Shown here: in pieces, positions 606 to 42,186 of the stretch
Position numbering within the stretch: position 1 is the stretch's first letter
How the letters are laid out: each line of letters begins with the position of its first letter
Assembly (NCBI GenBank): GCA_963696395.1
Contig: CAVOJZ010000002.1
Location: 495,317-559,316 of the forward strand
DNA: 64,000 nt
Direction: 5' to 3'
Source: an uncultured bacterium
Lineage (GTDB): Bacteria; Patescibacteriota; Minisyncoccia; UBA6257; 2-01-FULL-56-20
Position numbers and translations under genes: made by a program
Notes under the pieces: model-generated
The model's database searches: none
Told to the model about the DNA's origin: nothing
What the model saw: only the letters and a program-made list of their open reading frames with translations

Positions 606-1886
606 ATGGGAAAATCTTTTGTAACGTACGGAATAATAGGCGCGCTCTTCATAACCGTGGTTATCACGTGGCAACTTCCTCTTGCCCGCGCCACGGCGAC
701 CGGGACGCAAGCAACGGCGGCGACCTCCACAAACGATAGCGCCCTCCAATCCGAAATTGACGCGAATAATCAGCAGATCGCGACGCTCAATCAGCAGATC
801 GCGAATTATCAAGCGGAACTTCAACAGGTTGGGGCGAACAAAAAGACTTTGCAGGCCGCGATTAACTCCCTGGATTTACAGAGAAACACGGTGCAGGCTC
901 GCGTTGCCATCATCCAGCAGCAGATAGCAATCACCCAACTTCAAGTCCAGCAAATCGGCGGACAGATAACGGATACTCAGCAATCGATTATCTCGGCACA
1001 GGCAGCTCTTGCGGCACAGCTTCGGTTGGTCCAGAAAGATGACGCCCGTCCGCTTTTGATCCAGCTTCTGTCCTCGGATACTCTTGCGAATGCATGGGGC
1101 GACATCAACGCAAGCTTGCAGGTACAAAATGCAATTGAGAATCAGGCATCAGCTCTCCAGGCTCAAAAAAGCACTCTCGCAGATTCAGAAAGCGCGTCAG
1201 AACAAAAGCAGACCATGCTTGCGTCGCAGAAATTGTCACTTGCTGCTCAGCAGCAAACTCTTATCGCGACAGAACAGTCAAAAAGCCAGCTTCTTGTTGA
1301 AACAAATTCACAAGAGTCGAATTATGAAAAATTGCTTGCTGCCGCAGAAGCCCAGCTCCAAAGCTTTTCAGCATTTACGGAAAATGCCGGAGGGTCGGGC
1401 ATTCTTGGCAATCAGACCGTTTGTGATGCGTGGGGTTGTTATTATAATCAGCGGGATGCCGCGTGGGGGAAGGACGCGCTTGATGGTACAAAATACACCC
1501 TGGCGAGCGATGGCTGCCTTGTCACGGCGATGGCGATGGTTCTCACGCATTACGGATACCATACGGTGACGCCGGTATCGATAAATGATAATCCGAACAA
1601 TTTCGCCGCGTATTACCCTGCGTCGCTTCTTTCAACGATCAACGTGAACGGTGTGACTGCTACGCGAAAAGCCGCGGCGATTGACGCAACGCTTGCAAGT
1701 GGCAACCCTGTGATCGTCGGGCTTAGGGCCTACGGAGGCACGCATTTCGTTGTTCTTGTGAGCGGCAGTAACGGCAACTATTTAATGCGCGATCCCTATA
1801 TTACCAACGGAAATAACATCAGCTTTTCAGATCATTATTCGCTGAGGAGCATCTTCGCCGTCTCGAAGGTTATAATAGAAAGCTAA
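606..1886 (+). CDS. membrane-anchored coiled-coil protein with C-terminal peptidase C39-like (Peptidase_C39_2 / papain-like) domain; putative cell-wall hydrolase
   Basis: N-terminal TM, ~250 aa Q/A-rich coiled coil, C-terminal motif ...DGCLVTAMAMVL... (catalytic Cys context) and ...GGTHFVVLVSG...RDP (His context) typical of C39-like domains. Confidence 0.5.
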   Translation: MGKSFVTYGIIGALFITVVITWQLPLARATATGTQATAATSTNDSALQSEIDANNQQIATLNQQIANYQAELQQVGANKKTLQAAINSLDLQRNTVQARVAIIQQQIAITQLQVQQIGGQITDTQQSIISAQAALAAQLRLVQKDDARPLLIQLLSSDTLANAWGDINASLQVQNAIENQASALQAQKSTLADSESASEQKQTMLASQKLSLAAQQQTLIATEQSKSQLLVETNSQESNYEKLLAAAEAQLQSFSAFTENAGGSGILGNQTVCDAWGCYYNQRDAAWGKDALDGTKYTLASDGCLVTAMAMVLTHYGYHTVTPVSINDNPNNFAAYYPASLLSTINVNGVTATRKAAAIDATLASGNPVIVGLRAYGGTHFVVLVSGSNGNYLMRDPYITNGNNISFSDHYSLRSIFAVSKVIIES

Positions 1887-3050: not shown

Positions 3051-4107
3051 TTGCGTGAGTATCCTTTTCCGCCTCCTTGGTTGCCGGTTCAAACAACTTA
3101 AAAATCTTTCCTTCTATGATTGCAGCTTCCGCCTCGCGGCGAAGGTTGCGGGGATCTTCATTTGGATAACGATGCTTGAGAAAATTCACATGCGTGGCAA
3201 TCTCGCGATCGTCGGCCGTGATATTTGCAGTTTCTTGAATTTTTCGGAATACGAACGAGGTTCGGATCCGATCTTCGATCATCTCGCGGTCTTCTTTCGC
3301 GAGATCCTTCTCCGTTTTTTTGGCTTCCTTCAGATAAGCGTCAAGGGTCATTCCCAGGCGTTCAAATTCAGCATTGCGATGCTCGAGAAAGTGCGCGAGC
3401 TCTTGTTCCATGAGAAGTTCCGGAACCGTCAATTTTGATTTTTGCACTATCGTTTTCACTGCTTCATTCCGCTGCGCACTGCGAATGTTATTTTCCTTGC
3501 CCTGAAGGAGCTCTCGCTTCACTTCATCTTTTAATGCGGCAAGCGTTTTCACTCCTCCGAGTTGTTCCGCGAAGGCATCGTTGAGTTCGGGCAGATCTTT
3601 CCCGCCCGTCGCCTGCATTGTCATGCGGCGAATTTCAAGCAAGGCGTCGTCAATTTCTTTTTCGGTAACGCTCACATCGCTTTTTCGTGAAAGAATTTCT
3701 TTGCCGATAGTTGTGTAATCGGGAAGTTCCACCTCCGGTTCGATGGCAAACCGGACGGTGAAGACAATCGGCTTATTCGGCTCAAGGGTTTCGATGCTCA
3801 CTTTCGGCGTTCCGATGGCGGCAAGCTTTTCCGTCTCCGCAATTTCCTGGATGGCTGCACGCACTGCGGAATCCGCCGTTGCCTCAATAAGATCCGCAAC
3901 GCTAATACGTTCCCGAAGCATGGCTTCCGGGATTTTCCCCCTGCGGAAGCCGGGCATCGAAAAATCTTTGCCTAGACGATGAAGCTCTCGTTTTTCATGA
4001 TCTTGTACGGTCTCGAGGGGCACTTCGGCGCGAAATTCCACCTCGTTATTTTTGTCGGAAAGTTTTTTGAGATTACTATAAGATTCCATTGAGGAATACT
4101 GTACCAC
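3046..4107 (-). CDS. tig: trigger factor (ribosome-associated chaperone), short form
   Basis: N-terminal GFRRGKIP motif characteristic of the trigger-factor ribosome-binding domain, followed by a PPIase-like and C-terminal helical region. 353 aa. Confidence 0.7.
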   Translation of the reverse strand: MVQYSSMESYSNLKKLSDKNNEVEFRAEVPLETVQDHEKRELHRLGKDFSMPGFRRGKIPEAMLRERISVADLIEATADSAVRAAIQEIAETEKLAAIGTPKVSIETLEPNKPIVFTVRFAIEPEVELPDYTTIGKEILSRKSDVSVTEKEIDDALLEIRRMTMQATGGKDLPELNDAFAEQLGGVKTLAALKDEVKRELLQGKENNIRSAQRNEAVKTIVQKSKLTVPELLMEQELAHFLEHRNAEFERLGMTLDAYLKEAKKTEKDLAKEDREMIEDRIRTSFVFRKIQETANITADDREIATHVNFLKHRYPNEDPRNLRREAEAAIIEGKIFKLFEPATKEAEKDTHAK

Positions 4108-7507: not shown

Positions 7508-8447
7508 AAGTTCAATAGCTTGTAATCAGTTCGGCGATTTTTTCTTGCGGCGTTTTCATGTCGAGCCCCATGTGGGGCCGTTCGGTATTGTAGTAGTGGA
7601 GATATTCCGGCAGTTCCTTTTTCCACAATGAAAGGTCGCGGGGCACTCGCTTGATATATTCATCTTGGATCGTGCGGTTGAACCGCTCAAGGTGGGCATT
7701 GTCGTTCGGCGTGCGGATCCGCGAATGGCGATGGGAAAGGCCACGCGCCACGAGCTGCTTGGTGAACCATTTTGAAAACTCTGATCCGTGATCCGACTGG
7801 ATCGTTTGAAAGGCAAAGGGTGATGCAATCTGCCCGTATTGCACGAAGGAGAGGCTGCGATGGGTATTGATCCGCAAGGATGGGATCGCATATGCCCAGC
7901 GCGTGCAGACATCGATGAGCGTGTAGAGATACAGCTGGTTGCCCGAGGGACCCACATGCACGGTGTCGATTTCGACGAGCACACCTGGTTTTTCAGGCAG
8001 TGGTCGCGGCGGGTACGTGTGCCACTTCTTCCATTTCGAGGGATACGTGAGATGATAGCGCCGCAACGTCCGCTTGACCGATGAGAGGGAGACCGCAACG
8101 CCATCGCGCGTGAGCATCATATGGAGCACCTCAGCGCATCGATGATATTTTTCACGATATGCGAGGATGGCATCAACCACATCTTCTGAAAGTTCACGTG
8201 GATGATGATGTGGTTTTGATGACCGCGCGGGGATGATCCGCGCCATGCGGTTTGCAGGTGCCCGCTTCATCCATTGGACGATCGCCCCCTGGGAGAAGCC
8301 AAGATGCCGCGCGACCTTTCTCGTCGACCATCCTGACCGCACCAAACGCACTGCCTCCATGCGGACATGGGGCAACTGCTCGTTATTTGAATATGCCATA
8401 TCCATAGCTTGAATCACTCAGGGGTGATTACAAGCTATTGAACCATT
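7508..8447 (-). mobile_element. IS481-family-like insertion sequence (one rve-type transposase gene) with ~19-bp terminal inverted repeats
   Basis: gttcaatagcttgtaatca (7510-7528) is the reverse complement of tgattacaagctattgaac (8427-8445), bracketing the transposase ORF. Confidence 0.6.
7512..8417 (-). CDS. DDE transposase, integrase-core (rve) domain, IS481 family-like
   Basis: N-terminal HTH, DDE region DTVHVG...TLIDVCTRWAY...HSRIRTPNDNAHLERFNRTIQDEY. Confidence 0.75.
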   Translation of the reverse strand: MIQAMDMAYSNNEQLPHVRMEAVRLVRSGWSTRKVARHLGFSQGAIVQWMKRAPANRMARIIPARSSKPHHHPRELSEDVVDAILAYREKYHRCAEVLHMMLTRDGVAVSLSSVKRTLRRYHLTYPSKWKKWHTYPPRPLPEKPGVLVEIDTVHVGPSGNQLYLYTLIDVCTRWAYAIPSLRINTHRSLSFVQYGQIASPFAFQTIQSDHGSEFSKWFTKQLVARGLSHRHSRIRTPNDNAHLERFNRTIQDEYIKRVPRDLSLWKKELPEYLHYYNTERPHMGLDMKTPQEKIAELITSY

Positions 8448-8449
8448 AC

Positions 8450-9590
8450 CGCGAATTCAATCTTGAAATGCAACATCTCCGCGGGTGAGAATATCGGTAC
8501 GTCGAATACCAAAAACCCACATAACGGAGATGTCGCACTCGCATTTTACGCGCGACGACCGTGTCGCGCTAGCCCACCTGCTCTTGGTGGGCAAAACACA
8601 GTCATGGATCGCGGACCGGCTTGGCAAGAGTCCGGGTACAATCAGTCGGGAGATCAGGAGGAACCGTGATGATGACGGCGTATATCGCGGCGGCAGCGCC
8701 CATCACAAGACACAATACCGAAGGTTTGCTGCCAAAGAACCGTCGCAGAAATTGAAGCATGATCGAACGCTCCGCCGCCATGTCATGCGAAAACTCAAGC
8801 ACTATTGGTCGCCCGAACAGATCGCGGGACGTTTGCAGCGAATGACGAAACACACCGTCGTCTCCCATGAGACGATTTACCAGTTCGTATACCGCGACCG
8901 GTCGGACCTCAAAAAATATCTGCGGTATCAAAAGGGAAAGTGGCGCAGGAGGCGTGGCACGAACACGAGGAAAGCCAAGCGGAACGCATTGAAAATCAGG
9001 CGAATCGAAGAACGCCCACCGGTGGTTGAGGAGCGCAGGCGAATCGGCGACTGGGAAGGCGATACGATTCTTGACCGCACCAAAAAGCAACGGATGCTCA
9101 CCCACGTCGATCGGGCGAGTGGTTTTGGTGCGGCGGACAAAGTCGAAAAAGTCACTGCGGAGAACGTACATGCGATCACGCGCGATCGGTTCAAAAAGAT
9201 CCCGAAGAAAAAGCGGCACACCATGACACGTGACAACGGTCCTGAGTTCGGCGATTACGATCGTTTGCTTGAAAAAGATATTGATATTACCGTCTACCGC
9301 GCGACGCCCTATCACTCTTGGGAACGCGGATCGAATGAGAATTGGAACGGCCTGCTCCGGCAATTCTTTCCAAAAGGTATGGATTTTGCTATCGTGAAAC
9401 AATCCGATATCGACCGAGTCGTCCGACTGCTCAATGACCGTCCGAGAAAACGGCTCGGCTATCTCACTCCACGAGAGGTGTTCAATGGTCGTTGCGATTC
9501 AAACTAGAATTCAGGGTTGCAAAACACGTTAACCCTGACACAATTACCGAGGCGAAAGTTTCTCGGGTCGATAGGGAGTTTCTCTTGAAT
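8450..9590 (+). mobile_element. IS30-family element (boundaries approximate, inverted repeats not resolved)
   Basis: transposase gene 8530-9507. Only weak ATTCAA-containing candidate ends near 8455 and 9585. Confidence 0.35.
8530..9507 (+). CDS. IS30-family transposase
   Basis: HTH_38-like N-terminus (DRVALAHLLLVGKTQSWIADRLGKSPGTISREIRRN), GDWEGDTI and TRDNGPEF DDE motifs. Start taken at MSHSH (ATG 8530). Confidence 0.8.
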   Translation: MSHSHFTRDDRVALAHLLLVGKTQSWIADRLGKSPGTISREIRRNRDDDGVYRGGSAHHKTQYRRFAAKEPSQKLKHDRTLRRHVMRKLKHYWSPEQIAGRLQRMTKHTVVSHETIYQFVYRDRSDLKKYLRYQKGKWRRRRGTNTRKAKRNALKIRRIEERPPVVEERRRIGDWEGDTILDRTKKQRMLTHVDRASGFGAADKVEKVTAENVHAITRDRFKKIPKKKRHTMTRDNGPEFGDYDRLLEKDIDITVYRATPYHSWERGSNENWNGLLRQFFPKGMDFAIVKQSDIDRVVRLLNDRPRKRLGYLTPREVFNGRCDSN

Positions 9591-10061
9591 CGAGGTCCGG
9601 ATAAAGGAACGCGCTACGAAGGCGAGACGGTCAGCATCATCGCCGAACAATTGTTGATCCTTGACGGAAAGGGTGAGTCGCTCGCTTCTGTCGGAGGGTT
9701 CCGCATCGAAGTTATCGACAACCGAGCAAAAAAAGCTGCTGCGCCGCGGTGGAAAAGATTCTGGATGGATTCTGAAACAGAAAAATACGTACAGAACCCC
9801 CTTACCATCGAAGAAGCCCTTGAGGGCTTGCGGGAAAGAGGAGTTTTGGATCAAGCTGTGTTCGTCCTCTCGTTTATCAAAGATCTATACTACCTGTGGG
9901 ACGACCCCATTTGCAAAAGGATCGGACACCTTGTTCTCTATAAGCCTCCGAAAGATTTTACGCTTCCTGGCTGGCTTGAAGAAGAAGAACGGCGTGAGCG
10001 CGAGCAGATCCAGCAGACAATCGACACTATCGATGCAGAAGCGACGGCTCCTGTTAGCTGA
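9492..10061 (+). CDS. hypothetical protein (start uncertain, overlaps the IS30 transposase 3' end)
   Basis: 189-aa ORF followed by a terminator-like hairpin. Confidence 0.3.
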   Translation: MRFKLEFRVAKHVNPDTITEAKVSRVDREFLLNRGPDKGTRYEGETVSIIAEQLLILDGKGESLASVGGFRIEVIDNRAKKAAAPRWKRFWMDSETEKYVQNPLTIEEALEGLRERGVLDQAVFVLSFIKDLYYLWDDPICKRIGHLVLYKPPKDFTLPGWLEEEERREREQIQQTIDTIDAEATAPVS

Positions 10062-10127
10062 TCCTTGGATCAACGAACAACCCGGCGGGCGTAGAGCAAT
10101 CTATGTCCGCCTTTTTCTTTATTAAGA

Positions 10128-10164
10128 TCTCTCCACCGCATAGCCCTTGATTTCAGAGCGGGTT
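10128..10164 (+). repeat. att-like repeat copy 1 (tctccaccgcatagcccttgatttcaGAGCGGGTT). ~90% identical over 37 nt to copy 2
   Basis: near-identical 37-41-nt repeat at 11835-11875. Shares the core with 6233, 12424 and the tRNA-Gly-like 3' end. Confidence 0.6.
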
Positions 10165-10200
10165 GGTGGCGGGGTTTTAATGATCGAGAAATGTTGAGGA

Positions 10201-10233
10201 ATAAAAAGAGCCGCCCTCGTAAAGACGGGCGGC
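10201..10233 (-). terminator. rho-independent terminator for the minus-strand gene 10238-10867
   Basis: gccgccc...cgggcggc hairpin (10210-10233) followed on the minus strand by TCTTTTT. Confidence 0.55.
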
Positions 10234-10237
10234 ATTG

Positions 10238-10867
10238 CTATTTCGTAACGAGCCAGGCACGTGACCAGATACGGTAAACGCCATAGTACTCGTTTTCCAT
10301 CATGAAACCGAAAGCCAGCTCTTCGCGTTCGTAGTCGCCATCTCCTCCAAAGAGGCCGTAAAGGCCTCTGTTATTGAAGCACGATGTGCCCCAGCGCTTC
10401 ATTTCCGATTCGATGAAAGCATGGAATGCTTCGAGGATGGTGACTTGCTGTTCAGGATATCGTTCGTACTCACTTTCTGTTATGGCTCCGAACATATGGC
10501 GCAAGCCGAACCTTTTTACGATCCGCATCTGGACAAGATAGCCGTCTTCACCGGGCGACGGGGACTCGGCGGTAAAAATAGCATAGCGTTTCTCGTCAGT
10601 TGTTACTTCGAGCAATCGAAGCAGGGCGTCGAAATCTGCTTTGGCGATCCTATTGCCAAAATAAATCGTACCACCACTTGCTTCCTGTGGCGGCGCACTC
10701 TTGAACGGATCTTTTCCGAAACGGTCTTGATAACCGTAAACTCCGCTACCGTACGGTGCACATTGAGAGAGATCGCCGGGTTGAACTTCGAGCGTGCAGT
10801 TAGGCCAGATCGGAGGCGATACACTGACCCGATCGCCAAGATTGAATACGAGTCGTGTTGGTGGCAT
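10238..10867 (-). CDS. hypothetical protein (cassette gene)
   Basis: 209-aa ORF, no recognisable domain. Confidence 0.4.
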   Translation of the reverse strand: MPPTRLVFNLGDRVSVSPPIWPNCTLEVQPGDLSQCAPYGSGVYGYQDRFGKDPFKSAPPQEASGGTIYFGNRIAKADFDALLRLLEVTTDEKRYAIFTAESPSPGEDGYLVQMRIVKRFGLRHMFGAITESEYERYPEQQVTILEAFHAFIESEMKRWGTSCFNNRGLYGLFGGDGDYEREELAFGFMMENEYYGVYRIWSRAWLVTK

Positions 10868-10997
10868 ACATTCTCCTTACAAAGAGCGATATTCCAATCG
10901 TTTCTACGCCGCAATTATATCCTTTGACAATCGCTCCGTCAAGAAATACAATATCGGCAGCTATCACGAGATAAAAAATGTATAAACAGGAGCGGCT

Positions 10998-11780
10998 ATG
11001 GAGAAAGCAGCAAACAAGGCAATCGGACTTCTCGTCGGCCTCTACCGCCGAATCGCAGATCTCACACAAAAGGACTTAGCAAAGCATTCGGGAGTCGATG
11101 TGAGCAAGATCGCAATGGTTGAATCAGGATTGCGCGCACTAGGGACGGATCGTCATGCTCTAGCTGAGGCGCTCAAGATATCCGCTCTTGGCAAAGAAGA
11201 ACTCGATGTTTTAGCGAATGGATGGTTCGGTATCCCTCAGGCTGATTTTCTGACCCCTGAAGATGTTTTGACCGGAACGCCATTGTTCGTGAGAGGTTTG
11301 TCAGAAGAATTTTCCAATCAGCGGACCAATTTCGATGCCGTTTGGATCGTGACTTCGGGCGATCTCTTGCGTAACCCAGCACTTCAGTCGTTCATTGAGC
11401 AGCGGGTTAAAAAGACGCGGTTTGTATTTTTCATCGCGTCGGATTCCTTATCTCTCGACAGCATTATACTGTTGAGGAATCGGATCATCAAAGAATGCCG
11501 CGTTTCAAAAAAGTGCCTGGATCAGAACCTTCTTTTAATAAAAGTTCCTCCGGCAGTATGTTTACAGGACATGGTGATCTATGACCCGGGCAAAAGCTGT
11601 TGTATGTTTGGACGGATCATCATACGCCTTCAGTTTCCGTGCGGAACATTCGCCATGGATCCATCGCAGCTGATCAGAGTTTATAACGCATTTGGACTTA
11701 TCCTCATGCAGGTCGAGACGAGACCCGGAGTCCATGTCGAGACTTCAGCTGGAGGGTCTATGTTATTGCCCTCTGCGTAG
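10998..11780 (+). CDS. XRE-family HTH protein with an uncharacterised C-terminal domain
   Basis: HTH_XRE-like segment LTQKDLAKHSGVDVSKIAMVESG near the N-terminus. Confidence 0.45.
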   Translation: MEKAANKAIGLLVGLYRRIADLTQKDLAKHSGVDVSKIAMVESGLRALGTDRHALAEALKISALGKEELDVLANGWFGIPQADFLTPEDVLTGTPLFVRGLSEEFSNQRTNFDAVWIVTSGDLLRNPALQSFIEQRVKKTRFVFFIASDSLSLDSIILLRNRIIKECRVSKKCLDQNLLLIKVPPAVCLQDMVIYDPGKSCCMFGRIIIRLQFPCGTFAMDPSQLIRVYNAFGLILMQVETRPGVHVETSAGGSMLLPSA

Positions 11781-11834
11781 CTTTATCGGTTTGGCCGCGA
11801 CAGAAATGTCGTGGCCTTTTATTTATCTAAAATT

Positions 11835-11875
11835 TCTCCACCGTATAGCCCTTGATTTCTGAGCGGGTTAGTCAA
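11835..11875 (+). repeat. att-like repeat copy 2 (tctccaccgtatagcccttgatttctGAGCGGGTTagtcaa)
   Basis: see copy 1. The 3' part (GAGCGGGTTAGTCAA) is shared with copy 3. Confidence 0.6.
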
Positions 11876-11948
11876 CGACGTTCGTACCTGTTTTCTTTTG
11901 GAAAGAGCTAGGAAATTCAGCATTCCCAATTTTGCGTAGTGGACAATG

Positions 11949-12371
11949 CTAGAACTCCGATGTCACTGTTCCCGTCATCTTATCAACGGTGTACCAATTA
12001 AACGTGGCGTCATGATCGGACATGCTTTCGTACGCGTGCACCACATACGTACTTGTCGTTTCTGAATCAATTTCGATTACCGGAACACCGCCGGTCTTGG
12101 GACTTGTTTCGTTCGGGCCAGTGAATTGTGCCATCCACTGCTTAACGTCAGGCAGATTATTTACAAGGGCGATGGCTTCGCTTGTGCTATTAACCGGAGT
12201 TGCGAATGCCGTACTCGAGACGTTACTGCTTATAGGTGTTGGTGCAACGCTTAGAAGATTTTGCGACGATGGTTGGGTTTGGGTTGTCACATAATACCAA
12301 ACTCCACCTGCAACTAATGCCGCTAATACGATAATTCCGACACCGACCAAAAAAGGAATCTCCCTCTTCAT
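11949..12371 (-). CDS. membrane-anchored secreted hypothetical protein
   Basis: N-terminal TM/signal anchor, Ser/Thr-rich linker. Confidence 0.4.
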   Translation of the reverse strand: MKREIPFLVGVGIIVLAALVAGGVWYYVTTQTQPSSQNLLSVAPTPISSNVSSTAFATPVNSTSEAIALVNNLPDVKQWMAQFTGPNETSPKTGGVPVIEIDSETTSTYVVHAYESMSDHDATFNWYTVDKMTGTVTSEF

Positions 12372-12423
12372 AATTCAAGTTTAACACAATAGTGATTCCC
12401 GCCACCGAAATAGGAAGTCACTG

Positions 12424-12438
12424 GAGCGGGTTAGTCAA
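12424..12438 (+). repeat. att-like repeat copy 3 (GAGCGGGTTAGTCAA), followed by tandem gatgtccgga x2
   Basis: 15-nt identity with copy 2. Confidence 0.5.
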
Positions 12439-12474
12439 TGATGTCCGGAGATGTCCGGACCTATGGGAGAAAAA

Positions 12475-12864
12475 CTAGTTCACGCTGTTTATCGTCTTTT
12501 CCATCACGTCAATTGCTTCCCCGACAGTAATAGAATATACCCCAGCGCTACCTTTTTTAAAAGCATCGCACCACATTTCATATTCTTCAGCAAAATCAGG
12601 CAACGGAACATTTTCCTGTAACATTGCAATTACACTTCTTGAAATAGCCTCTTCTGAGAAAGGTGCGTGTTGAATGATTTTAGTAATTCCTTCGGGCGCA
12701 TTTTTATTTAAAACTCGTAATCCCTGAATCGCAACATGAACAATATTCCCAAGCTTTTCACGGGAATCAACCTTAAGAATCGTAAGCGTAGAATTTTCCT
12801 CGTTAAGTCGAGCTTTATAACTCCAGATTTGACCAGCTGCGTAAATACTCTTTTTGTCAATCAC
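12475..12864 (-). CDS. hypothetical protein (cassette gene)
   Basis: 129-aa ORF. Confidence 0.4.
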   Translation of the reverse strand: MIDKKSIYAAGQIWSYKARLNEENSTLTILKVDSREKLGNIVHVAIQGLRVLNKNAPEGITKIIQHAPFSEEAISRSVIAMLQENVPLPDFAEEYEMWCDAFKKGSAGVYSITVGEAIDVMEKTINSVN

Positions 12865-12896
12865 TCTTAAAGTTTAACAAAATGAAGTGTCGCTGA

Positions 12897-12966
12897 GCGG
12901 GTAAGGGGAGTCGGACCCCTGTCAACAGGTTGGAAACCTGTGGTAATGCCGTTATACGATACCCGC
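12897..12966 (-). tRNA. tRNA-Gly(TCC)-like, possibly functional with an atypical T-loop TCCGACT, or a degenerate att-site tRNA
   Basis: Minus-strand cloverleaf: acceptor GCGGGTA/TACCCGC, anticodon stem ACAGG/CCTGT with loop TTTCCAA (anticodon UCC), T-stem AGGGG/CCCCT, discriminator U. A C at T-loop position 55 is also seen in the tRNA-His of this window. Confidence 0.5.
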
Positions 12967-13069: not shown

Positions 13070-13666
13070 ATGACTAAAGTTTCGCGTCGTACCAAGGCCG
13101 TTGTGGTCTTTATTGTTCTCGTGGTTGTCGGCTACGCGATCGCCGTTTTTTGGGGAAACCGGAATCAGGTTCCGGTTGCGTTCACGAATGCGCGATTGCA
13201 GGGAGCCCTTATTTCGGAAAGCATAGTGGGCATCTCTAATTCCTCAACGGCCGAATTGGCGGCAATCAGCAAGGACGACCAAAGTGGGAATTACACCGAC
13301 GCACTCACACTCACGACAAATCTGATAAACCAGAGCCAGGACCTGCGCGATCAGGCGGTCAGTTTGTCGAATCAGATCGGAATCATGACGCAGTCATTGT
13401 CCTCAATCAACAACTTCAATGCCCAGCAGGCCGCACTCGAATCGATCTCGAGTCGGCTCGCGCTCATCAACCAGTTGATCAATTACAGCGGCGACCTCGA
13501 TCATCTGCTTGGCGTTTTGCAGACACGATTCTCCGGAAAATATGTTCCTGCGGGAACGGTGCAGGGGATCGTGAACCAGATCAACACGGACGTGAACGCG
13601 ATCAACAATTTCAACGCGCAGGGAACGGCAGCGATGGATCAATTTGATAAGATAGTCAAAGACTAG
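13070..13666 (+). CDS. membrane-anchored hypothetical protein
   Basis: N-terminal TM helix, N/Q/S-rich extracytoplasmic region. Confidence 0.4.
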   Translation: MTKVSRRTKAVVVFIVLVVVGYAIAVFWGNRNQVPVAFTNARLQGALISESIVGISNSSTAELAAISKDDQSGNYTDALTLTTNLINQSQDLRDQAVSLSNQIGIMTQSLSSINNFNAQQAALESISSRLALINQLINYSGDLDHLLGVLQTRFSGKYVPAGTVQGIVNQINTDVNAINNFNAQGTAAMDQFDKIVKD

Positions 13667-13714
13667 AACTAGCAATCGTCTTAAAACTGGCAGCGAGGTA
13701 AAATGGAAGCGTAT

Positions 13715-13786
13715 GGGCGTGTAGCTCAATGGTAGAGCAGACGTCTTATACACGTCCGGTTCCAGGTTCGAGTCCTGGCACGCCCA
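13715..13786 (+). tRNA. tRNA-Ile (anticodon TAT/UAU), no encoded CCA
   Basis: acceptor GGGCGTG/CACGCCC, D-arm GCTC-AATGGTA-GAGC, anticodon stem GACGT/ACGTC with loop CTTATAC, T-arm CCAGG-TTCGAGT-CCTGG, discriminator A. Confidence 0.7.
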
Positions 13787-13845
13787 CAAAGGACGCCCAT
13801 ACGCTTCCATTTTCACCGAGTGAACCAGTTTTATGGGCGAAGCCC

Positions 13846-13888
13846 ATATACACGTCCGGTTCCAGGTTCGAGTCCTGGCACGCCCACA
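13846..13888 (+). repeat. direct repeat of the 3' 41-43 nt of tRNA-Ile (anticodon loop to discriminator), a truncated tRNA copy / att-site scar
   Basis: atacacgtccggttccaggttcgagtcctggcacgcccaca is identical to 13748-13788. Preceded by palindrome tatgggcgaagcccata. Confidence 0.7.
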
Positions 13889-13904
13889 TTCCCGACTAAG
13901 GAAA

Positions 13905-13935
13905 AATAAAAAACCCCCAAGAGGGGATTTTTTAT
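13905..13935. terminator. bidirectional rho-independent terminator (A-tract, short GC hairpin, T-tract)
   Basis: aaaaaacccccaagaggggatttttta between the tRNA locus and the convergent minus-strand gene. Confidence 0.5.
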
Positions 13936-13949
13936 AATCCGAAGCGTTG

Positions 13950-14177
13950 TTATTTTGCCATCGGCATTCCTGATCCTGACGTGCAGGTCTTGCAGCGGCT
14001 GCCATGGGTAATTGCTTCGTAGATCGCAGCGAGGCCGATAAGAATGTAGATGATCATTGAAAGGGTCGTTCCGGCCCCGAAAATGACGCTCACCAAATTC
14101 CATCCAAAAGCGAAAAGAAGCCAATTCAAACCGCCAACGATAACAAGGATAAACGCGATAATGTGAAGTGCTTTCAT
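13950..14177 (-). CDS. DUF378-family small membrane protein
   Basis: 75 aa, motif GGLNWLLFAFGWNLV typical of DUF378. Confidence 0.5.
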   Translation of the reverse strand: MKALHIIAFILVIVGGLNWLLFAFGWNLVSVIFGAGTTLSMIIYILIGLAAIYEAITHGSRCKTCTSGSGMPMAK

Positions 14178-21744: not shown

Positions 21745-21745
21745 T

Positions 21746-22039
21746 GCCGCGGTAGCTCAGTGGCAGAGCGCAGCCCTAAAATCTTTGGGGCCTTTCACAG
21801 TAATGTGAATTGAATAACCGGGTGAACTCGGGGAAAACTTTATCCAGAAAAATTATGGATAAAACAATCCCGAGCCAAGCTTCGCAGGGGTTTACGTTGC
21901 GAAGAAGGTGTAGAGACTAGCGAGTGAGTCCCAACAATAATCTCGCACAAGCGCCCGGCTTCCTGAAAAGGAAGATGATATAGTCCAAATTCAGCTTCGG
22001 AAGAGGCTGGCGTCGAGTGTTCGATTCACTCCCGCGGCA
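21746..22039 (+). tRNA. tRNA-Phe (anticodon GAA) interrupted by a group I intron between positions 33 and 34
   Basis: exons 21746-21777 and 22000-22039 form a canonical cloverleaf: GCCGCGG acceptor, anticodon stem CAGCC/GGCTG, spliced loop CU|GAAGA, T-arm GAGTG-TTCGATT-CACTC, discriminator A. Confidence 0.7.
21778..21999 (+). ncRNA. group I self-splicing intron (222 nt) in the tRNA anticodon loop
   Basis: P1: exon CCCU pairs with IGS GGGG (21788-21791). P10: 3' exon GAAGA pairs with TCTTT just 5' of the IGS. R element AGAGACTA (21912-21919) and S element GATATAGTCC (21976-21985) form P7. Terminal G (omegaG) at 21999. Confidence 0.7.
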
Positions 22040-22050
22040 CACTGAAAAAA

Positions 22051-28107: not shown

Positions 28108-28593
28108 ATGACAAAAAAAGCAGGCGCGCTCATCTTCCTTGTTTCCATGATTGCAATCCTTGCCCTGCCGATGCTTGCGAATGCGCAAAATGCAACCGGA
28201 ATACCGTATTGGCCTACAAACGGTCTCATTTCGTGCGTTGGGAATTATAGCGTCGGAAATATAACAGGAGTTAATCCCAGTGGAAGGCCGACCTGTTCAA
28301 GCATTTGTGATCTTTTGCAGACCTTTGTGAATATTGTCTATTTCATCATTACGGTTTGTATTTTTGTGCTCGCGCCTATAATGTTCGCCGTGGGCGGGGT
28401 CATGATGATATTTTCCGGGGCGAATCCAGAAATGTTGAGTAAGGGAAAAAGTGTTCTATTGAGTACGGCGACCGGGATTGCGATCGTTTTGTGTTCCTAT
28501 CTTCTCGTTTTTACATTTATCAGCGTACTGAATGCAAACAGCAACGGGATTTTCGGCGGCACTCTGATGTGTACGCCTCAATATTCACAATAA
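28108..28593 (+). CDS. TrbC/VirB2-like pilin family protein (paralog 1)
   Basis: signal peptide, then two hydrophobic helices separated by SGANPE...KGK loop. Same architecture as four following paralogs. Confidence 0.45.
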   Translation: MTKKAGALIFLVSMIAILALPMLANAQNATGIPYWPTNGLISCVGNYSVGNITGVNPSGRPTCSSICDLLQTFVNIVYFIITVCIFVLAPIMFAVGGVMMIFSGANPEMLSKGKSVLLSTATGIAIVLCSYLLVFTFISVLNANSNGIFGGTLMCTPQYSQ

Positions 28594-28598
28594 GGAAC

Positions 28599-29501
28599 AT
28601 GAAAAAGGCGGCGATCCGAGCTTTTGCACTCTCTCTCGCGGTCGTTCCGCTTGCTCTCGCCCCGATCCTTGCTTTTGCCCAGGCTAAAATATCGCTCGCC
28701 ATTCCCGGAAGCTATTCGATCGCAACAAGCACACCTCCGGGCTACGTCATAGCCAATTTCTATCAATTCGCCCTTTCAATAGGCGGCCTGCTTGCATTCG
28801 GCGCCATCGTCTATGGGGGCGTGAAATATGTTGCCTCCGGAGGCAACCCGTCGGCGCAAAGCGAGGCGAAGGAATGGATTTGGAGCGCACTACTCGGTCT
28901 ATTGCTGCTCGTTTGCGCCTATTTCGTTCTCACCGCAATCAATCCAAACCTTGTCCATCTCGATCTCCCGACGCTCTCGCCGGTGAGTATCAGCCAAACA
29001 AATGTCGGCATTGGATATGGCGGCCCGCCGAGCAGTGGAGGCGGGGGCGGAAGTGGAGGGGGAGTCGGAAACGGAACGTGTAGCCCGGCTCCTGCAGGAC
29101 CTTGCAGTGTGAGCCAGCTTCAATCAAGCTGCATGGGGAGCAATGCGCAAGCGGCATCGGAAATCTGCATGAAAGAAAGCAGCGGTAACGCAGCGGCAGG
29201 CGGAGATATTTCCACCGGAGGCCAACCGGTTTCGATTGGTCTTTTCCAAATTAATCTTTCCGTGAATTCGATCGGTGGCCTAAATTGCCCTTCCGCCTTC
29301 AACCATTCTTGGCATGCGCCCGGTGTGTGCGGCAAAGCAGGTACGGGTTGCGGCCCAAGCACGATCACTAACCAAGCTCTTTACGCGCAATGCGTAGCCG
29401 CTGCGCAAAATGTTGCGACGAATATTGCGCAGGCGTGCGCGATGTCTAATTACGGGACAAATTGGAGCCAATGGAGCACGCACAAAACATGTGGTCTATA
29501 A
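28599..29501 (+). CDS. TrbC/VirB2-like pilin module fused via a Gly-rich linker to a lytic transglycosylase (SLT/lysozyme-like) domain (paralog 2)
   Basis: pilin-like N-domain (FALSIGGLLAFGAIVYGGVKYVASGGNPSAQSEAKEWIWSALLGLLLL), linker GGPPSSGGGGGSGGG, C-domain with SLT signature MKESSGN...SIGLFQIN and multiple Cys. Confidence 0.5.
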   Translation: MKKAAIRAFALSLAVVPLALAPILAFAQAKISLAIPGSYSIATSTPPGYVIANFYQFALSIGGLLAFGAIVYGGVKYVASGGNPSAQSEAKEWIWSALLGLLLLVCAYFVLTAINPNLVHLDLPTLSPVSISQTNVGIGYGGPPSSGGGGGSGGGVGNGTCSPAPAGPCSVSQLQSSCMGSNAQAASEICMKESSGNAAAGGDISTGGQPVSIGLFQINLSVNSIGGLNCPSAFNHSWHAPGVCGKAGTGCGPSTITNQALYAQCVAAAQNVATNIAQACAMSNYGTNWSQWSTHKTCGL

Positions 29502-29517
29502 TGGAAATACATTCATA

Positions 29518-30030
29518 ATGAATAAAAAAATTATCATTATCGGCGTGGGAATCCTGATTATCGTCGCCGCCATCGTCATCTATTTTGTTCTTCAGGGTTC
29601 TCCGTCGGGCACCGGTAGCGCGGGGACTGTGGGATCAGGACTCCCGATATCCACGAGCACCACTATGCACGTTGCGCCGACGGGTACAACGATCACGCTT
29701 GGCACGAGTCAAGGGAGCGTGGTCACCGACAATTTTTATAACACCGCCGATTACATTACGCAGGATCAACAAACAGTTGTGATGAATCAGACGTCAACCT
29801 ATAGTATTGTCTACAATGTTTCAGATAGCAGTTTCATCATCACTATCCTCGCGGAACCTCTCGAAGCGAATCGCCAGCTAGCAGAAGCGGCATTTCTTAA
29901 ATCTCTAAAAATTTCGGAGCAGAGTGCGTGCAAATTGAACGTTTATGAAGCGGTGCCGGCGAGCGTATCCGACCAAGCTTCTGGCAAGCCATTCCCTTTG
30001 AGTTTTTGCGGGACCCCATCTCCACTGTAA
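29518..30030 (+). CDS. membrane-anchored hypothetical protein within the pilin cluster
   Basis: N-terminal TM (KKIIIIGVGILIIVAAIVIYFVL), Ser/Thr-rich extracellular part. Start set at the internal ATG 29518. Confidence 0.35.
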   Translation: MNKKIIIIGVGILIIVAAIVIYFVLQGSPSGTGSAGTVGSGLPISTSTTMHVAPTGTTITLGTSQGSVVTDNFYNTADYITQDQQTVVMNQTSTYSIVYNVSDSSFIITILAEPLEANRQLAEAAFLKSLKISEQSACKLNVYEAVPASVSDQASGKPFPLSFCGTPSPL

Positions 30031-30052
30031 AGAAAACGACAGATATTCTATA

Positions 30053-30451
30053 ATGAATAAGATGAAATATGCGATGAAGAGGGGTTTCGGTTTGGCCGCC
30101 GCCGCGCCTGTCGTTTTTGTTGCATGGATGAGTGTGGCGCTCGCGCAATCAACGGGAGGTTCGACGAATATCACGCTGTGCGACCCTTTGGGGAACAATT
30201 GTCAGCCTGGCAACGAAACTTTTTTGTCATTAGCAAATAATGTGATCGGTTTCATTTTTTGGGACATAGCAACGCCGTTGTCGGTGATTATGGTGTTGGT
30301 CGGCGCGTTTCAACTCATGACTTCGGGTGGAAATCCGGAAAAAGCATCGCAGGGTCGCAAAACGATTATGTATGCAGCGATCGGGCTTGCGGTAGCTATT
30401 GCGGCAAGCGGTTTAGCCACTTTCATTAAGAGCCTTCTTAATGGAAGTTGA
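30053..30451 (+). CDS. TrbC/VirB2-like pilin family protein (paralog 3)
   Basis: signal peptide plus helix-SGGNPEKASQGRKT-helix (IMYAAIGLAVAIAASGL). Confidence 0.45.
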   Translation: MNKMKYAMKRGFGLAAAAPVVFVAWMSVALAQSTGGSTNITLCDPLGNNCQPGNETFLSLANNVIGFIFWDIATPLSVIMVLVGAFQLMTSGGNPEKASQGRKTIMYAAIGLAVAIAASGLATFIKSLLNGS

Positions 30452-30490
30452 CAGTGGCACCGCAAACGGTCGAACATAAATAAAAAATTC

Positions 30491-30892
30491 ATGAACAGAA
30501 TAAAAATTTGGTTTGTGCGATGGGCGCCGGTAATCGTCCCGATTGTATATCTCGGCATGAGGGTAGTGGCAGCTCCGCTCGCGCACGCAATTGACCAGCC
30601 TCCGCCTCCTCCGGTCACCGATCAAGCGGATCTCGCCAAATTGATGTGCAATATTGTTTCCTGGTTCTTTTGGATAGTGATCGTAATTTCCGTGATCATG
30701 ATTTTGTATGCCGCGTACACGTATGTCACGGCGGCTTCGGATCAGGAAAAAACCAGCAAGGCCCGGAGGACGTTAACCTATGCAGCCGTCGGCATCGCGG
30801 TCGCGGTCATCGCCGCGGGTTTCCCGGCGATTGTGTCCAGCATTATTCCAAACGAGCCAAATGTCAGTCTTATGGATACGTGCTCGTTCTGA
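30491..30892 (+). CDS. TrbC/VirB2-like pilin family protein (paralog 4)
   Basis: helix-AASDQEKTSKARRT-helix (LTYAAVGIAVAVIAAGF). Confidence 0.45.
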   Translation: MNRIKIWFVRWAPVIVPIVYLGMRVVAAPLAHAIDQPPPPPVTDQADLAKLMCNIVSWFFWIVIVISVIMILYAAYTYVTAASDQEKTSKARRTLTYAAVGIAVAVIAAGFPAIVSSIIPNEPNVSLMDTCSF

Positions 30893-30976
30893 TGTGTAGG
30901 CGGTTGTTAATTAAGGGGTGATTGTGATAGTCTAAATAAGTACTCAGGAAAGGTCGAATATTCCTCACTATTATCT

Positions 30977-42097: not shown

Positions 42098-42186
42098 GTT
42101 ACCAGTATACCGCGATCTGTCGTAAAAGGGGGAGCCAAGGCGCACGGGCTTGCGCTTTTCGTCTAAGCGCGTTATAATAGGTTGTA

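Follow-up and report, generated by a model that had tools for sequence, protein, structure and literature searches.

The locus analysed here raises a simple question: why is an apparently ordinary bacterial tRNA-Ile(UAU) gene followed by a second, exact copy of its own 3' half? A preliminary description of the window (the whole 64-kb stretch of DNA that was analysed) saw there the classic attL/attR scar of an integrase whose element had since been lost. Our answer is different: the locus is a tRNA-Ile(UAU) gene that a non-coding insert of 165 nt (13684-13848) divides precisely between anticodon positions A35 and U36 (CTTA...TAC), and the insert carries a complete tRNA-Ile(UAU) of its own. The downstream half is indeed a piece of tRNA displaced by an insertion that brought its replacement, as an att interpretation would have it, but the element said to be gone from between the repeats is still present as the inner tRNA and its stalk. 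Read from the outside in, the insert consists of a 7-bp helix (P1), a purine-rich core, a 21-bp helix (P2) and the complete inner tRNA at the tip; a hairpin (P3) follows this nested stalk and abuts the old 3' half. The parts are listed in table 1.

Table 1. Parts of the split tRNA-Ile(UAU) locus and its immediate surroundings (window coordinates)
Feature	Position	Strand	Evidence
Gene for membrane-anchored 198-aa protein, function not assigned	13070..13666	+	ORF; homologue search
Outer (older) tRNA-Ile(UAU), 5'-half relic AGCAATCGTCTTA	13671..13683	+	Aligned to intact 5' halves of L002, L005 and L006
P1 5' strand AAACTGG, first bases of insert, abuts outer A35	13684..13690	+	Pairs with 13825-13831
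Conserved core, 5' side CAGCGAGG	13691..13698	+	[C/G]AGCGAG invariant in 9/9 leader-keeping instances
P2 5' arm AAAATGGAAGCGTATGGGCGT, overlaps inner tRNA nt 1-6	13700..13720	+	Perfect inverted repeat I1
Inner complete tRNA-Ile(UAU), CCA not encoded	13715..13787	+	ARAGORN; Rfam 73.2 bits; cloverleaf MFE
P2 3' arm ACGCCCATACGCTTCCATTTT	13793..13813	+	Inverted repeat I1; folding
Conserved core, 3' side CGAGTGAA (CGAGCGAA in most relatives)	13817..13824	+	CGAG[C/T]GA[A/T] in 8/8 trailer-keeping instances
P1 3' strand CCAGTTT	13825..13831	+	Folding, covariation
P3 hairpin TATGGGC-GAA-GCCCATA, final bases of insert	13832..13848	+	Hairpin here in 6/7 complete instances
Outer tRNA-Ile(UAU) relic, 3' half, U36 to A73 plus CA	13849..13888	+	42/42 identity including TA of P3
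Bidirectional intrinsic terminator, common to convergent DUF378 gene	13906..13935	.	Inverted repeat I2; folding

The inner gene is, as had been reported, a tRNA-Ile (anticodon tat) that is found by ARAGORN and matches RF00005, and it is the only copy of tRNA-Ile(UAU) in the 64-kb window. It has a canonical cloverleaf and a UAU anticodon, and AUA accounts for 156 of the 18,736 codons in the window's ORFs; to judge from these features it is presumably a functional AUA decoder, as tRNA-Ile(UAU) is in bacteria without tilS such as Mycoplasma mobile (PMC3575796). Its 3' segment, 13747-13788, is repeated exactly at 13847-13888 with 58 nt between the copies. The exactness of this repeat and its approximate spacing had been recognized correctly; its length had been put at 41-43 nt, starting at 13746 and 13846, and the gap at 57 nt, but 13746 is t and 13846 is a, so the repeat stops at 42 nt, not 43. 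The inverted copy of the tRNA leader is likewise real, but it is 21 nt long and lies at 13793-13813, rather than 20 nt at 13790-13801. It is 100% complementary to its left arm, which consists of 15 nt of leader and tRNA nt 1-6, and the duplex scores 21 compared with at most 12.5 among 200-300 shuffles. On folding, these arms give the leader/trailer helix that had been suspected, and the region 13695-13940 has a predicted energy of -97 kcal/mol (z = -6.3). The 17-nt palindrome noted earlier, TATGGGCGAAGCCCATA, is the P3 hairpin, with a predicted 7-bp stem and a GAA loop. P3 also resembles the tRNA 5' end (TATGGGCG), in this genome only. The other seven tRNAs of the window have no leader/trailer stalk, and the insert motifs have no second occurrence within the window or outside their locus in the about 95 loci compared.

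The upstream 198-aa protein has no Pfam match; its 396 homologues all come from CPR/Paceibacterota-type sources, and its gene served as the syntenic marker for finding the locus in relatives. No sigma-70-like promoter was found between this gene and the tRNA, and the two are probably co-transcribed. The terminator at 13906-13935 closes the tRNA transcription unit, and in relatives with an uninterrupted tRNA a terminator lies directly 3' of the tRNA. A nearby "tRNA-Gly-like array", which had been taken to make the region an integration hotspot, is a single tRNA-Gly(UCC) gene (12895-12966, minus strand) that is syntenic in all relatives. There is no integrase gene within about 4 kb on either side of the site; the nearest mobility genes in the window are transposases (7512-9507) and an Xer-like recombinase (41210-42283). 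The same window has a tRNA-Phe gene split by a group I intron (21768-22009, an RF00028 match).

In relatives from Candidatus Paceibacterota (referred to below by L numbers) the locus takes one of two forms, a single intact tRNA-Ile(UAU) or one split by an insert of 158-170 nt. The intact gene lies directly 3' of the 198-aa gene in L036, L037, L009/L038, L008/L010 and L095. Homologous inserts at the same tRNA-Ile(UAU) site were found in at least 10 Paceibacterota lineages, and every instance is a tRNA-Ile(UAU) within a tRNA-Ile(UAU). The constant parts are P1, the core (CUGGCAGCGAG / CGAGCGAACCAG), a P2 of 15-22 bp, the inner tRNA-Ile(UAU) and P3. Both outer halves flank the insert in L006/L007/L040, L002-4, L011/L058, L075, L082 and L092. 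The outer 5' half is found upstream of the leader in L002, L005, L006, L011, L029, L075, L082 and L092, and is intact in all of these but L075; the window retains 13 nt of it, namely the end of the D-stem, the anticodon-stem 5' strand ATCGT and loop positions C32-A35, the remainder having been deleted (the L002 counterpart is GGGCGCGTAGCTCAATGGTAGAGCAATCGTCTTA). This 13-nt relic was also recovered as a member of the window's repeat family D3. When the insert is removed in silico, ARAGORN finds a restored tRNA-Ile(UAU) in L006, L011, L082 and L092 but no tRNA in the window. The joined outer halves of L006 are identical at 72 of 72 positions to the intact L036 gene, and the host proteins of these two are 78% identical.

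The arrangement spans host-protein identities down to 56%, and the gene order around it differs in L092. The preliminary description had set two other possibilities against its own reading, an assembly artefact and a tRNA plus half-tRNA conserved over distant lineages. Independent assemblies of relatives (JGI, ENA, NCBI and Logan) show the identical architecture, which disposes of the former, and the latter is what we see. The right flank is also covered by L001, a Logan unitig of a different run, which terminates inside the repeat as is expected at a branch in a k-mer graph. No relative has a variant with an additional element between the two 3'-half copies, as had been anticipated; a trailer of about 55-60 nt and the hairpin always occupy that position. 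A scan of metagenomes with a pattern that left the anticodon and the outer gene unspecified gave 55 matches, and the five real ones (L040, L058, L075, L082 and L092) are all tRNA-Ile(UAU) in tRNA-Ile(UAU). The other 50 are chance matches or unrelated coding sequence, many of them in one conserved gene of unrelated bacteria; further motif matches in L008, L013 and L034 lie within coding sequence and are also due to chance. About 10 lineages were sampled in all, and the host tree used below is a neighbour-joining tree of the one 198-aa protein.

All seven complete inserts adopt the same fold in RNAfold, at -64 to -84 kcal/mol. P1 is 7 bp long in every instance, and three of its seven pairs, the first three, show compensatory changes (AAA/UUU, ACG/CGU, CCG/CGG and CGG/CCG). 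The P2 helices comprise 134 Watson-Crick pairs, three G.U pairs and one mismatch; at least five of them have unrelated yet complementary sequences, each scoring 15-21.5 against 12 or less in shuffles. P1, core and P2 together form a duplex of about 35 bp in all instances. The core is predicted to pair as GC/GC plus tandem G.A, and can be drawn equally well as a kink-turn (using the trailer's second GA) or as an ordinary helix with tandem G.A. The tandem G.A and an asymmetric CA/GAA loop are possible on the sense strand only, which favours a structure formed at the RNA level. The P3 stems vary, and the triloops are cGAAg or cGCAg in the window clade. The predicted junction is three-way with linkers of 4, 0-1 and 3 nt, with P1 and P3 rooted 0-1 nt from the insertion junctions. 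The P2 and P3 stems are unrelated in sequence and cannot be aligned by MAFFT, so that RNAalifold recovered only P1 and the inner cloverleaf; P2 and P3 were therefore analysed sequence by sequence. The 57-58 nt between the repeats are thus not random sequence but the 3' strands of two conserved covarying stems and a conserved hairpin.

The outer gene is damaged in six of the 10 lineages, each of which keeps an intact inner tRNA. The window has a 5' deletion; in L002 the anticodon is mutated and a recombinase island sits in the T loop; L005 and L029 have lost the 3' half, and L015 the 5' half and leader; and L075 has a G at position 35. We infer that the outer gene of the window is dead and that AUA is decoded by the inner tRNA. 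The inner and outer 3' halves are identical at 42 of 42 positions in the window but at only 36 of 42 in L006, where the outer half is the same as that of the intact L036 tRNA. The window's outer 3' strand ACGTC cannot pair with the ATCGT of its own 5' relic, which points to gene conversion; the outer 3' half has apparently been overwritten from the inner copy 100 nt upstream, and this would account for the 42/42 identity. In L075 the inner and outer tRNAs differ in the acceptor stem only.

Presence of the insert is patchy on the host-protein tree. L082 and L015, whose hosts are 73% identical, have near-identical trailers and P3 hairpins in very different outer tRNAs, and between the window clade, L082 and L029 the inner tRNA varies at three nt or fewer although the hosts are only 56-58% identical. 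L095 is close to the window (84-85%) but has a quite different tRNA-Ile allele. Relics of the trailer start are found 3' of the outer tRNA of L011 and of the resident tRNAs of L008 and L095. The outer halves do serve as integration sites for serine-recombinase islands: in L002/L094 a large-serine-recombinase island is integrated into the relic 3' half and lies downstream of the half (its far end is not within 10 kb). A further such island, in L008, overlaps tRNA-His. No doubly nested copy was seen among the about 10 lineages.

These findings are in our judgement best explained, with good probability, by regarding the insert as a non-coding cassette that replaces the resident tRNA: its stalk would be a processing stem at the RNA level, and the outer halves would be decaying. 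The unit would be transcribed together with the upstream gene, and the P1-core-P2 duplex would act as a processing stalk, most likely as the substrate of an RNase III-like double-strand-specific RNase, in the manner of rRNA intervening sequences. RNase P, 3' trimming and CCA addition would then complete the inner tRNA, and the outer halves would be by-products. These roles for RNases III, P and Z are suggested by the duplex geometry and by analogy with other systems. Such a cassette would invade a resident tRNA-Ile(UAU), after which the cell would come to depend on the cassette's tRNA; homologous recombination between inner and outer copies could then erode or resolve the nested state, giving partial forms and rapid turnover of alleles. 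Insertion is site-specific and without target duplication, and the element encodes no protein. The analysis turned up no enzyme or mechanism for such site-specific insertion, and a search of viral contigs for an attP or carrier gave no match to the 42-nt repeat or to the two element patterns.

Several observations fit this explanation less comfortably. A plain RNase III stalk does not explain the conserved core, the invariant 7 bp of P1 or the conserved P3 at the 3' junction, all of which look like recognition elements for some further factor. Four of the 10 lineages retain an outer tRNA that can be reconstituted perfectly, and in L002 and L006 the outer anticodon stems differ but are each internally compensated (ATCGT/ACGAT and GACGT/ACGTC, respectively), as could equally be expected if the outer tRNA were spliced and functional. 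Finally, helices that are almost purely Watson-Crick would fit a structure in single-stranded DNA as well.

The first of these alternatives, a new type of intron, we regard as unlikely. The insert would be cut out of the outer pre-tRNA at the foot of P1 and just beyond P3, and the outer halves ligated, giving two tRNA-Ile(UAU) molecules per transcript; the core and P3 would be recognition elements of the splicing machinery, and the window's outer gene would have been lost as redundant with the inner copy. Valid outer tRNAs are indeed obtained upon removal of the insert in four lineages with very different tRNA backbones, L006 and L036 match perfectly in spite of their divergent host proteins, and the anticodon-stem differences between L002 and L006 are compensated. 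P1 moreover begins exactly at the 5' junction, is invariant in length and juxtaposes the two junctions, and the intron-bearing tRNA-Phe of the window indicates that split tRNA genes are tolerated. If the two copies were redundant, however, some inner losses would be expected, and it is only ever the outer gene that is destroyed, in six of the 10 lineages; that of the window cannot function. The insert also lacks a group I signature (no Rfam match, a 5' exon ending in A and a variable last intron base) and a bulge-helix-bulge, the bases before the 3' junction being unable to pair with CUUA, and we know of no bacterial enzyme pair that cuts and rejoins at such junctions.

The second alternative appears somewhat less likely still. 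Here the insert would be a hairpin element at the DNA level, a non-autonomous MITE- or PATE-like transposon moved in trans by a transposase or recombinase with specificity for the DNA of the anticodon stem-loop, and its RNA fold would be incidental. The complementary termini (P1) and the ratio of 134 Watson-Crick to three G.U pairs are in keeping with this, as is insertion at the centre of the anticodon loop's palindromic TATA. Triloops of the cGAAg and cGCAg type, cf. d(GCGAAGC), form exceptionally stable DNA mini-hairpins, and these are the P3 triloops of the window clade. The patchy distribution, with the same element type in different resident alleles, and the transposase genes of these genomes point the same way. 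Against it, no consistent target-site duplication is seen (there is none in L082 or L092), and the element occurs once at each locus, with no further copy in the 64 kb or the about 95 loci. The right-junction ends vary (ATA, ACA, GCC, GGT or CGA), unlike IS200/IS605 cleavage sites, and double nesting is unseen even though the inner tRNA offers the same target. The core is not an inverted repeat (GCGAG on the left, CGAGC on the right), its G.A pairs would be C.T mismatches on the opposite strand, and all three wobble pairs are G.U on the sense strand.

The model of the preliminary description, in which the 42-nt copies are attL/attR cores and 58 nt remain of an element that was excised or deleted, is very improbable: the block of identity does begin in the anticodon loop and extend to the 3' end, like a classical att site of that loop, and one serine-recombinase island does sit in the L002/L094 relic half while another overlaps the L008 tRNA-His, but relatives displace the old gene's 5' half upstream as well, which att duplication does not predict, their inserts are structured and conserved at 158-170 nt rather than variable remnants, the spacer consists of covarying strands and a hairpin, their 3' halves differ (so the identity in the window is secondary), and there is no integrase near the window site. 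A hammerhead-type three-way junction, a TA-duplicating transposon, a serine-recombinase "TA crossover" and the group I, bulge-helix-bulge and IS200/IS605 models were also considered and rejected, each failing on at least the L082 and L092 junction sequences.

Bacterial tRNA genes are regarded as uninterrupted, group I introns excepted; tRNA genes that are split or nested are on record for archaea and a few algae. In the present case one bacterial tRNA gene sits inside the anticodon loop of another with the same specificity, within a conserved, covarying, RNA-like scaffold, and this recurs in a CPR lineage. We found no precedent in the literature searched on nested tRNAs, tRNAs in introns and CPR tRNA introns, nor anything comparable to the insert in Rfam. 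If it is mobile, it would be a selfish, protein-less element that knocks out an essential single-copy gene yet brings the substitute with it, with its inserter in question; if it is spliced, it would represent a third type of tRNA intron and an unknown splicing activity in bacteria. We consider the chances about even that this is either an undescribed, protein-less cassette of about 165 nt that homes to A35/U36 of tRNA-Ile(UAU) with its own tRNA, on which the host comes to depend, and passes through cycles of invasion and recombinational resolution that would speed the turnover of this tRNA in Paceibacterota, or a third kind of tRNA intron, distinct from group I and bulge-helix-bulge introns, that would be recognized by a tandem-G.A, kink-turn-like core a fixed 7 bp from the splice site and would have a tRNA inside it. 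In practice tRNA finders report only the inner gene, and the leftover halves mimic att sites, so that they are easily taken for the scars of islands. In these reduced genomes gene replacement apparently has a hotspot at tRNA-Ile(UAU), a rare tilS-independent decoder of AUA.

The arrangement matches no known intron or mobile-element type, although it shares features with several. Archaea are known for bulge-helix-bulge introns, for split and tri-split tRNAs (Nanoarchaeum, Caldivirga) and, in Thermoproteales, for introns that are mobile (PMC10714607, PMC4090602). The parallels with our insert are a long helix of complementary flanking sequences that joins tRNA halves, the mobility of the introns, and tRNA-Ile(UAU) where the C34-modifying enzyme is absent. 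Ours, however, is in a bacterium, lies at position 35/36 rather than 37/38, has a tRNA inside it and has no bulge-helix-bulge; by inspection its 3' ends (..GCCCAUA, ..GGCCAUA, ..UUUGCC or ..CGGGGU) cannot pair with CUUA or UCUU. Group I introns of tRNA genes, such as that of cyanobacterial tRNA-Leu(UAA) and that of the window's tRNA-Phe, resemble it in being inserted in the anticodon loop, patchy and possibly mobile. The present insert is mostly tRNA and simple stalk, with no group I core, no terminal U on the 5' exon (which ends in A35) and no terminal G (the last base is A, A, A, A, C or U by lineage), and RF00028 has no match at 13620-13950 even at E <= 10.

Genomic islands and prophages in tRNA genes also leave a displaced fragment beside a functional replacement, in a block from the anticodon loop to the 3' end, and here too the direct repeat is an exact 42-nt tRNA 3' segment. 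The differences are that both halves are displaced (the 5' part separately), the replacement is a whole tRNA, the element is 165 nt long with paired, RNA-like flanks, and there is no integrase element at the junctions. Compared with MITEs, a TA ambiguity exists in some lineages only (not in L082 or L092) and no dispersed copies were found in the window or the about 95 loci; compared with PATEs of the IS200/IS605 type, the right-junction bases are variable and the small left-end hairpin is absent.

Bacterial Y RNAs (YrlA, Deinococcus Y RNA) recall the insert in shape: their two ends form a long stem with a conserved, protein-binding internal loop close to the bottom, and the apex resembles a tRNA and is open to tRNA enzymes. 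The apex here is a true, complete tRNA with an anticodon arm, and the core is unlike the Ro-binding helix. A permissive Rfam search returned only the tRNA and a sub-threshold match to RF01053 (15.4 bits against a gathering score of 80, E = 3.8), and no Ro/Rsr gene was seen within the window. The intervening sequences of 23S and 16S rRNA genes (in Salmonella, Leptospira and Campylobacter, among others), whose origin and spread are unexplained, are excised by RNase III without religation. The insert agrees with these in that a non-coding sequence of about 100-200 nt replaces the hairpin loop of a stable RNA, has ends that pair as a long stem, and occurs sporadically in close relatives. It differs from them in that the host gene is a tRNA interrupted at the anticodon, where fragmentation would be lethal without a replacement, and in that the insert itself carries a full tRNA of the same specificity, a conserved core and a second hairpin.

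Our analysis of the tRNA-Ile locus recovered all of the sequence features in the preliminary description: a tRNA-Ile with anticodon UAU (called by ARAGORN and Rfam), an exact repeat at 13847-13888 of the 42 nt at its 3' end (13747-13788, U34 to the discriminator plus two bases), a perfect 21-nt inverted repeat that flanks the tRNA and takes in its first six bases, and a palindrome, TATGGGCGAAGCCCATA. The region folds far more strongly than shuffled controls (z = -6.3). Its neighbours are ordinary core genes, with a gene for a 198-aa membrane protein upstream, and DUF378, FtsH, a DedA/VTT protein, tRNA-His and SHMT downstream. By the names attached to homologues of these neighbours, the window belongs to a Candidatus Paceibacterota genome (Parcubacteria, CPR).

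The 198-aa protein served as syntenic marker for retrieving the locus from about 45 related assemblies (L numbers denote these loci). Many relatives have a single intact tRNA-Ile(UAU) directly after the marker gene, followed by a terminator; the gene is uninterrupted in L036, L037, L009/L038, L008/L010, L095 and most distant relatives. In others it is split in the anticodon loop: the 5' half ends ...CTTA, an insert follows, and the 3' half begins TAC.... These inserts are 158-170 nt long and have a constant set of parts, and the outer halves of L006, when joined, are identical to the intact L036 gene at 72 of 72 positions. The "duplicate half" in the window (13849-13888, plus the TA of hairpin P3) is the 3' half of an older, outer gene, split by an insert that carries a complete inner tRNA. 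Only AGCAATCGTCTTA (13671-13683) survives of its 5' half, about 22 nt kept in L002, L005 and L006 having been deleted. The inverted repeat is stem P2 of the insert and the palindrome is P3, which resembles the tRNA 5' end (TATGGGCG) in the window genome only (relatives have TATGGCCC, TGTGGGCC and TATCCGCG). The presence of this architecture in independent assemblies excludes an assembly artefact.

Metagenomes were scanned with a pattern that combined nothing but a T loop and both core motifs; five of the 55 hits were real (L040, L058, L075, L082 and L092). All five are a tRNA-Ile(UAU) nested in a tRNA-Ile(UAU); three have very different outer backbones, and gene order around the element differs in L092. 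In the marker-protein tree the window groups with L002, L005 and L006 in a clade whose members are all interrupted, and through the rest of the tree interrupted and uninterrupted lineages alternate.

Coordinates of the tRNA-Ile insert and of other features in the window and related loci
Feature	Sequence	Position	Strand	Remark
Insert, whole	window	13684-13848		
P1, 5' strand	window	13684-13690		
Core, 5' side	window	13691-13698		
P2, 5' arm	window	13700-13720		
Inner tRNA-Ile(UAU)	window	13715-13787		
P2, 3' arm	window	13793-13813		
Core, 3' side	window	13817-13824		
P1, 3' strand	window	13825-13831		
P3 hairpin	window	13832-13848		
Bidirectional terminator	window	13906-13935		downstream of the repeat
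Trailer-start-like sequence	L011	~1438-1455		CAAGG-N-GCCCATAC
Trailer-start-like sequence	L008	~3673-3690		CAAGG-N-GCCCATAC
Trailer-start-like sequence	L095	~1357-1375		CAAGG-N-GCCCATAC
Large serine recombinase	L002/L094	2864-4483	-	Resolvase, Recombinase, Zn_ribbon_recom domains
Large serine recombinase	L008	6040-6597	-	Resolvase, Recombinase, Zn_ribbon_recom domains
Transposase, rve/rve_3 type	window	7512-8417	-	
Transposase, IS30-like	window	8485-9507	+	HTH_38+rve
tRNA-Gly(UCC)	window	12895-12966		
tRNA-Phe(GAA), split	window	21745-22040	+	GCCGCGG...CCGCGGCA
Group I intron in tRNA-Phe	window	21768-22009		Rfam RF00028, 70 bits
T4SS_pilin/TrbC cluster	window	28491-31345	+	four paralogous small proteins
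Giant ORF	window	34655-40525	+	1956 aa
Tyrosine recombinase, Xer-like	window	41210-42283	-	Phage_integrase + SAM-like N-terminal domain
NYN-domain protein	window	42485-43090	+	predicted RNase; adjoins tyrosine recombinase

The insert begins with P1, a 7-bp stem that starts at its first base, followed by the core (5' side [C/G]AGCGAG, 3' side CGAG[C/U]GA[A/U]), where the predicted pairing is a tandem G.A flanked by G-C pairs, adjoining an asymmetric CA/GAA loop. Beyond this is P2, a stem of 15-22 bp with the complete tRNA-Ile(UAU) at its tip, and P3 follows the P1 3' strand and abuts the outer 3' half. Covariation is seen in the first three pairs of P1 (AAA/UUU, ACG/CGU, CCG/CGG, CGG/CCG). The P2 arms have no sequence similarity between distant lineages, yet they are complementary within each element, with 134 Watson-Crick pairs, three G.U pairs and one mismatch over seven elements and duplex scores of 15-21.5 per element (shuffles reach 12 at most); within the window clade, a point difference in either arm has its match in the other (AAAATGGAAGCGTAT, AAAATATAAACGTAT, AAAATATAAATGTAT). 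P3 is a hairpin in six of the seven elements, with differing stems. What is conserved is structure and not sequence. Neither the window's seven other tRNAs nor the relatives' uninterrupted tRNA-Ile genes have such a leader/trailer stalk, which is therefore a property of the insert, not a general tRNA-processing feature. The tandem G.A and asymmetric loop form on the sense strand only, where all three P2 wobble pairs also read as G.U; this asymmetry speaks for folding at the level of the transcript.

The inner tRNA is intact in every one of the ten lineages. The outer gene is damaged in six, in different ways: the 5' half is deleted (window), the anticodon is mutated and a recombinase island lies in the T loop (L002), the 3' half is lost (L005 and L029), the 5' half and leader are lost (L015), or G occupies position 35 (L075). 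When the insert is removed in silico, ARAGORN finds a tRNA-Ile(UAU) in L006, L011, L082 and L092, decayed anticodons in L002 (UAG) and L075 (UGU), and no tRNA in the window. Such partial forms are what would be expected if the inner and outer sequences, being homologous, had recombined. The anticodon-stem strand of the window relic, ATCGT, would pair with ACGAT, as in L002; the 3' half carries ACGTC instead, the inner type, and the inner and outer 3' halves are identical at 42 of 42 positions in the window as against 36 of 42 in L006. This mismatch and identity indicate that the inner copy, which lies 100 nt upstream, has probably overwritten the outer 3' half by gene conversion. That the outer tRNA can be perfectly reconstituted in four lineages, and that the outer anticodon stems of L002 and L006 differ by compensated changes, would suit a genuine intron of a new type, but decay is one-sided, affecting the outer gene alone, and no known splice signature was found, so we consider an intron unlikely. 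A hairpin transposon acting at the DNA level could explain stems that are almost purely Watson-Crick; we regard it as quite improbable, since neither target duplication nor copy number fits, the ends are not conserved and the core is strand-asymmetric. The attL/attR scar of a lost integrase element, as first proposed, is contradicted by the relatives, which carry a displaced 5' half as well; no integrase lies near the site in the window.

As no promoter-like site was found between the upstream gene and the tRNA unit, the unit is probably transcribed together with the 198-aa gene. By comparison with the intervening sequences and processing stems of rRNA, the P1-core-P2 duplex (about 35 bp) would be a stalk at which a double-strand-specific RNase acts in processing, and the inner tRNA would then mature through RNase P, trimming of the 3' end and addition of CCA. 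This tRNA would decode AUA (156 among 18,736 codons in window ORFs); in bacteria tRNA-Ile(UAU) is known from the tilS-less Mycoplasma mobile (PMC3575796). Processing by such a stalk does not account for three features that look like recognition elements: the core with its strict conservation, a P1 of invariably 7 bp, and the conserved hairpin P3. The core can be drawn as a kink-turn too. The cassette encodes no protein, occurs in one copy per locus and was not found in viral contigs; its site is A35|U36, in the middle of a palindromic UAUA, and target duplication is not consistent. Functional claims for it rest on about ten lineages compared by sequence.

Several comparisons suggest that there has been horizontal movement as well as serial replacement. 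L082 and L015 have nearly identical trailers and P3, unrelated outer tRNAs, and host marker proteins only 73% identical, and no more than 3 nt separate the inner tRNAs found in the window clade, in L082 and in L029, whose hosts are 56-58% identical. L095, whose host is 84-85% identical to the window and L002, has an uninterrupted tRNA-Ile(UAU) (1283-1356) of quite a different allele type from the window's, and its body matches that of distant L075 (1768-1841; host identity 57%). Three tRNAs that are not now inside a cassette, the outer one of L011 and the resident ones of L008 and L095, are each followed by a trailer-start relic (CAAGGNGCCCATAC), so present "resident" genes may be former cassette tRNAs; the relics suggest traces of earlier rounds of insertion and resolution. 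Among close relatives, tRNA-Ile(UAU) alleles are unusually diverse, above all in their acceptor stems.

Other mobile or variable regions were seen. At its 3' end, each large serine recombinase gene lies antisense to a tRNA and overlaps that tRNA's T loop and 3' strand; in L002 the tRNA is the relic tRNA-Ile half and in L008 it is tRNA-His. Serine-recombinase islands in these genomes appear to have the 3' parts of tRNAs as their attachment sites; that of L002/L094 is at least 9.7 kb (to 12626 and beyond), with a DUF87 ATPase, an N6_N4 methyltransferase and Fic. Window positions 7512-12864 are a variable region adjoining tRNA-Gly, with two transposase genes back to back, then HTH and hypothetical genes up to tRNA-Gly(UCC); the stretch is wholly different in relatives, with toxin-antitoxin (L005), Nramp and acetyltransferase (L006) or TyrRS (L036-L038) genes. 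In L012, L014, L015 and L018 the 198-aa gene and tRNA-Ile are separated by a GC-rich, apparently structured spacer of about 150-250 nt; it has conserved ends (...cccctcaaa(g/a)ca...), is absent from the window clade and could be another non-coding RNA or repeat. The first protein of the type IV secretion pilin cluster is fused to a lysozyme-like domain, and at 38-40 kb GC skew is strongly negative (-0.33) and GC content reaches its maximum for the window (0.566). No link was found between the tyrosine recombinase/NYN pair and the tRNA-Ile locus. The split tRNA-Phe, missing from the ARAGORN output, is interrupted after U33 (junctions parsed by eye as CU | intron ...UUCG | GAAGA).

Our literature search turned up archaeal split tRNAs, and rRNA introns in CPR bacteria (PMC9297842, as cited in PMC10714607). 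No report resembling a tRNA nested in a tRNA came up in the literature searched. The insert lacks the core of a group I intron and has the wrong junction bases, no bulge-helix-bulge motif can be drawn at its junctions, and it has neither the target duplication nor the conserved ends of a MITE or IS200-IS605 element. Its match to Y RNA is sub-threshold, and unlike an integrase att duplication it displaces the 5' half too. In its working it would come closest to an intervening sequence of rRNA that doubles as a gene-replacement cassette.
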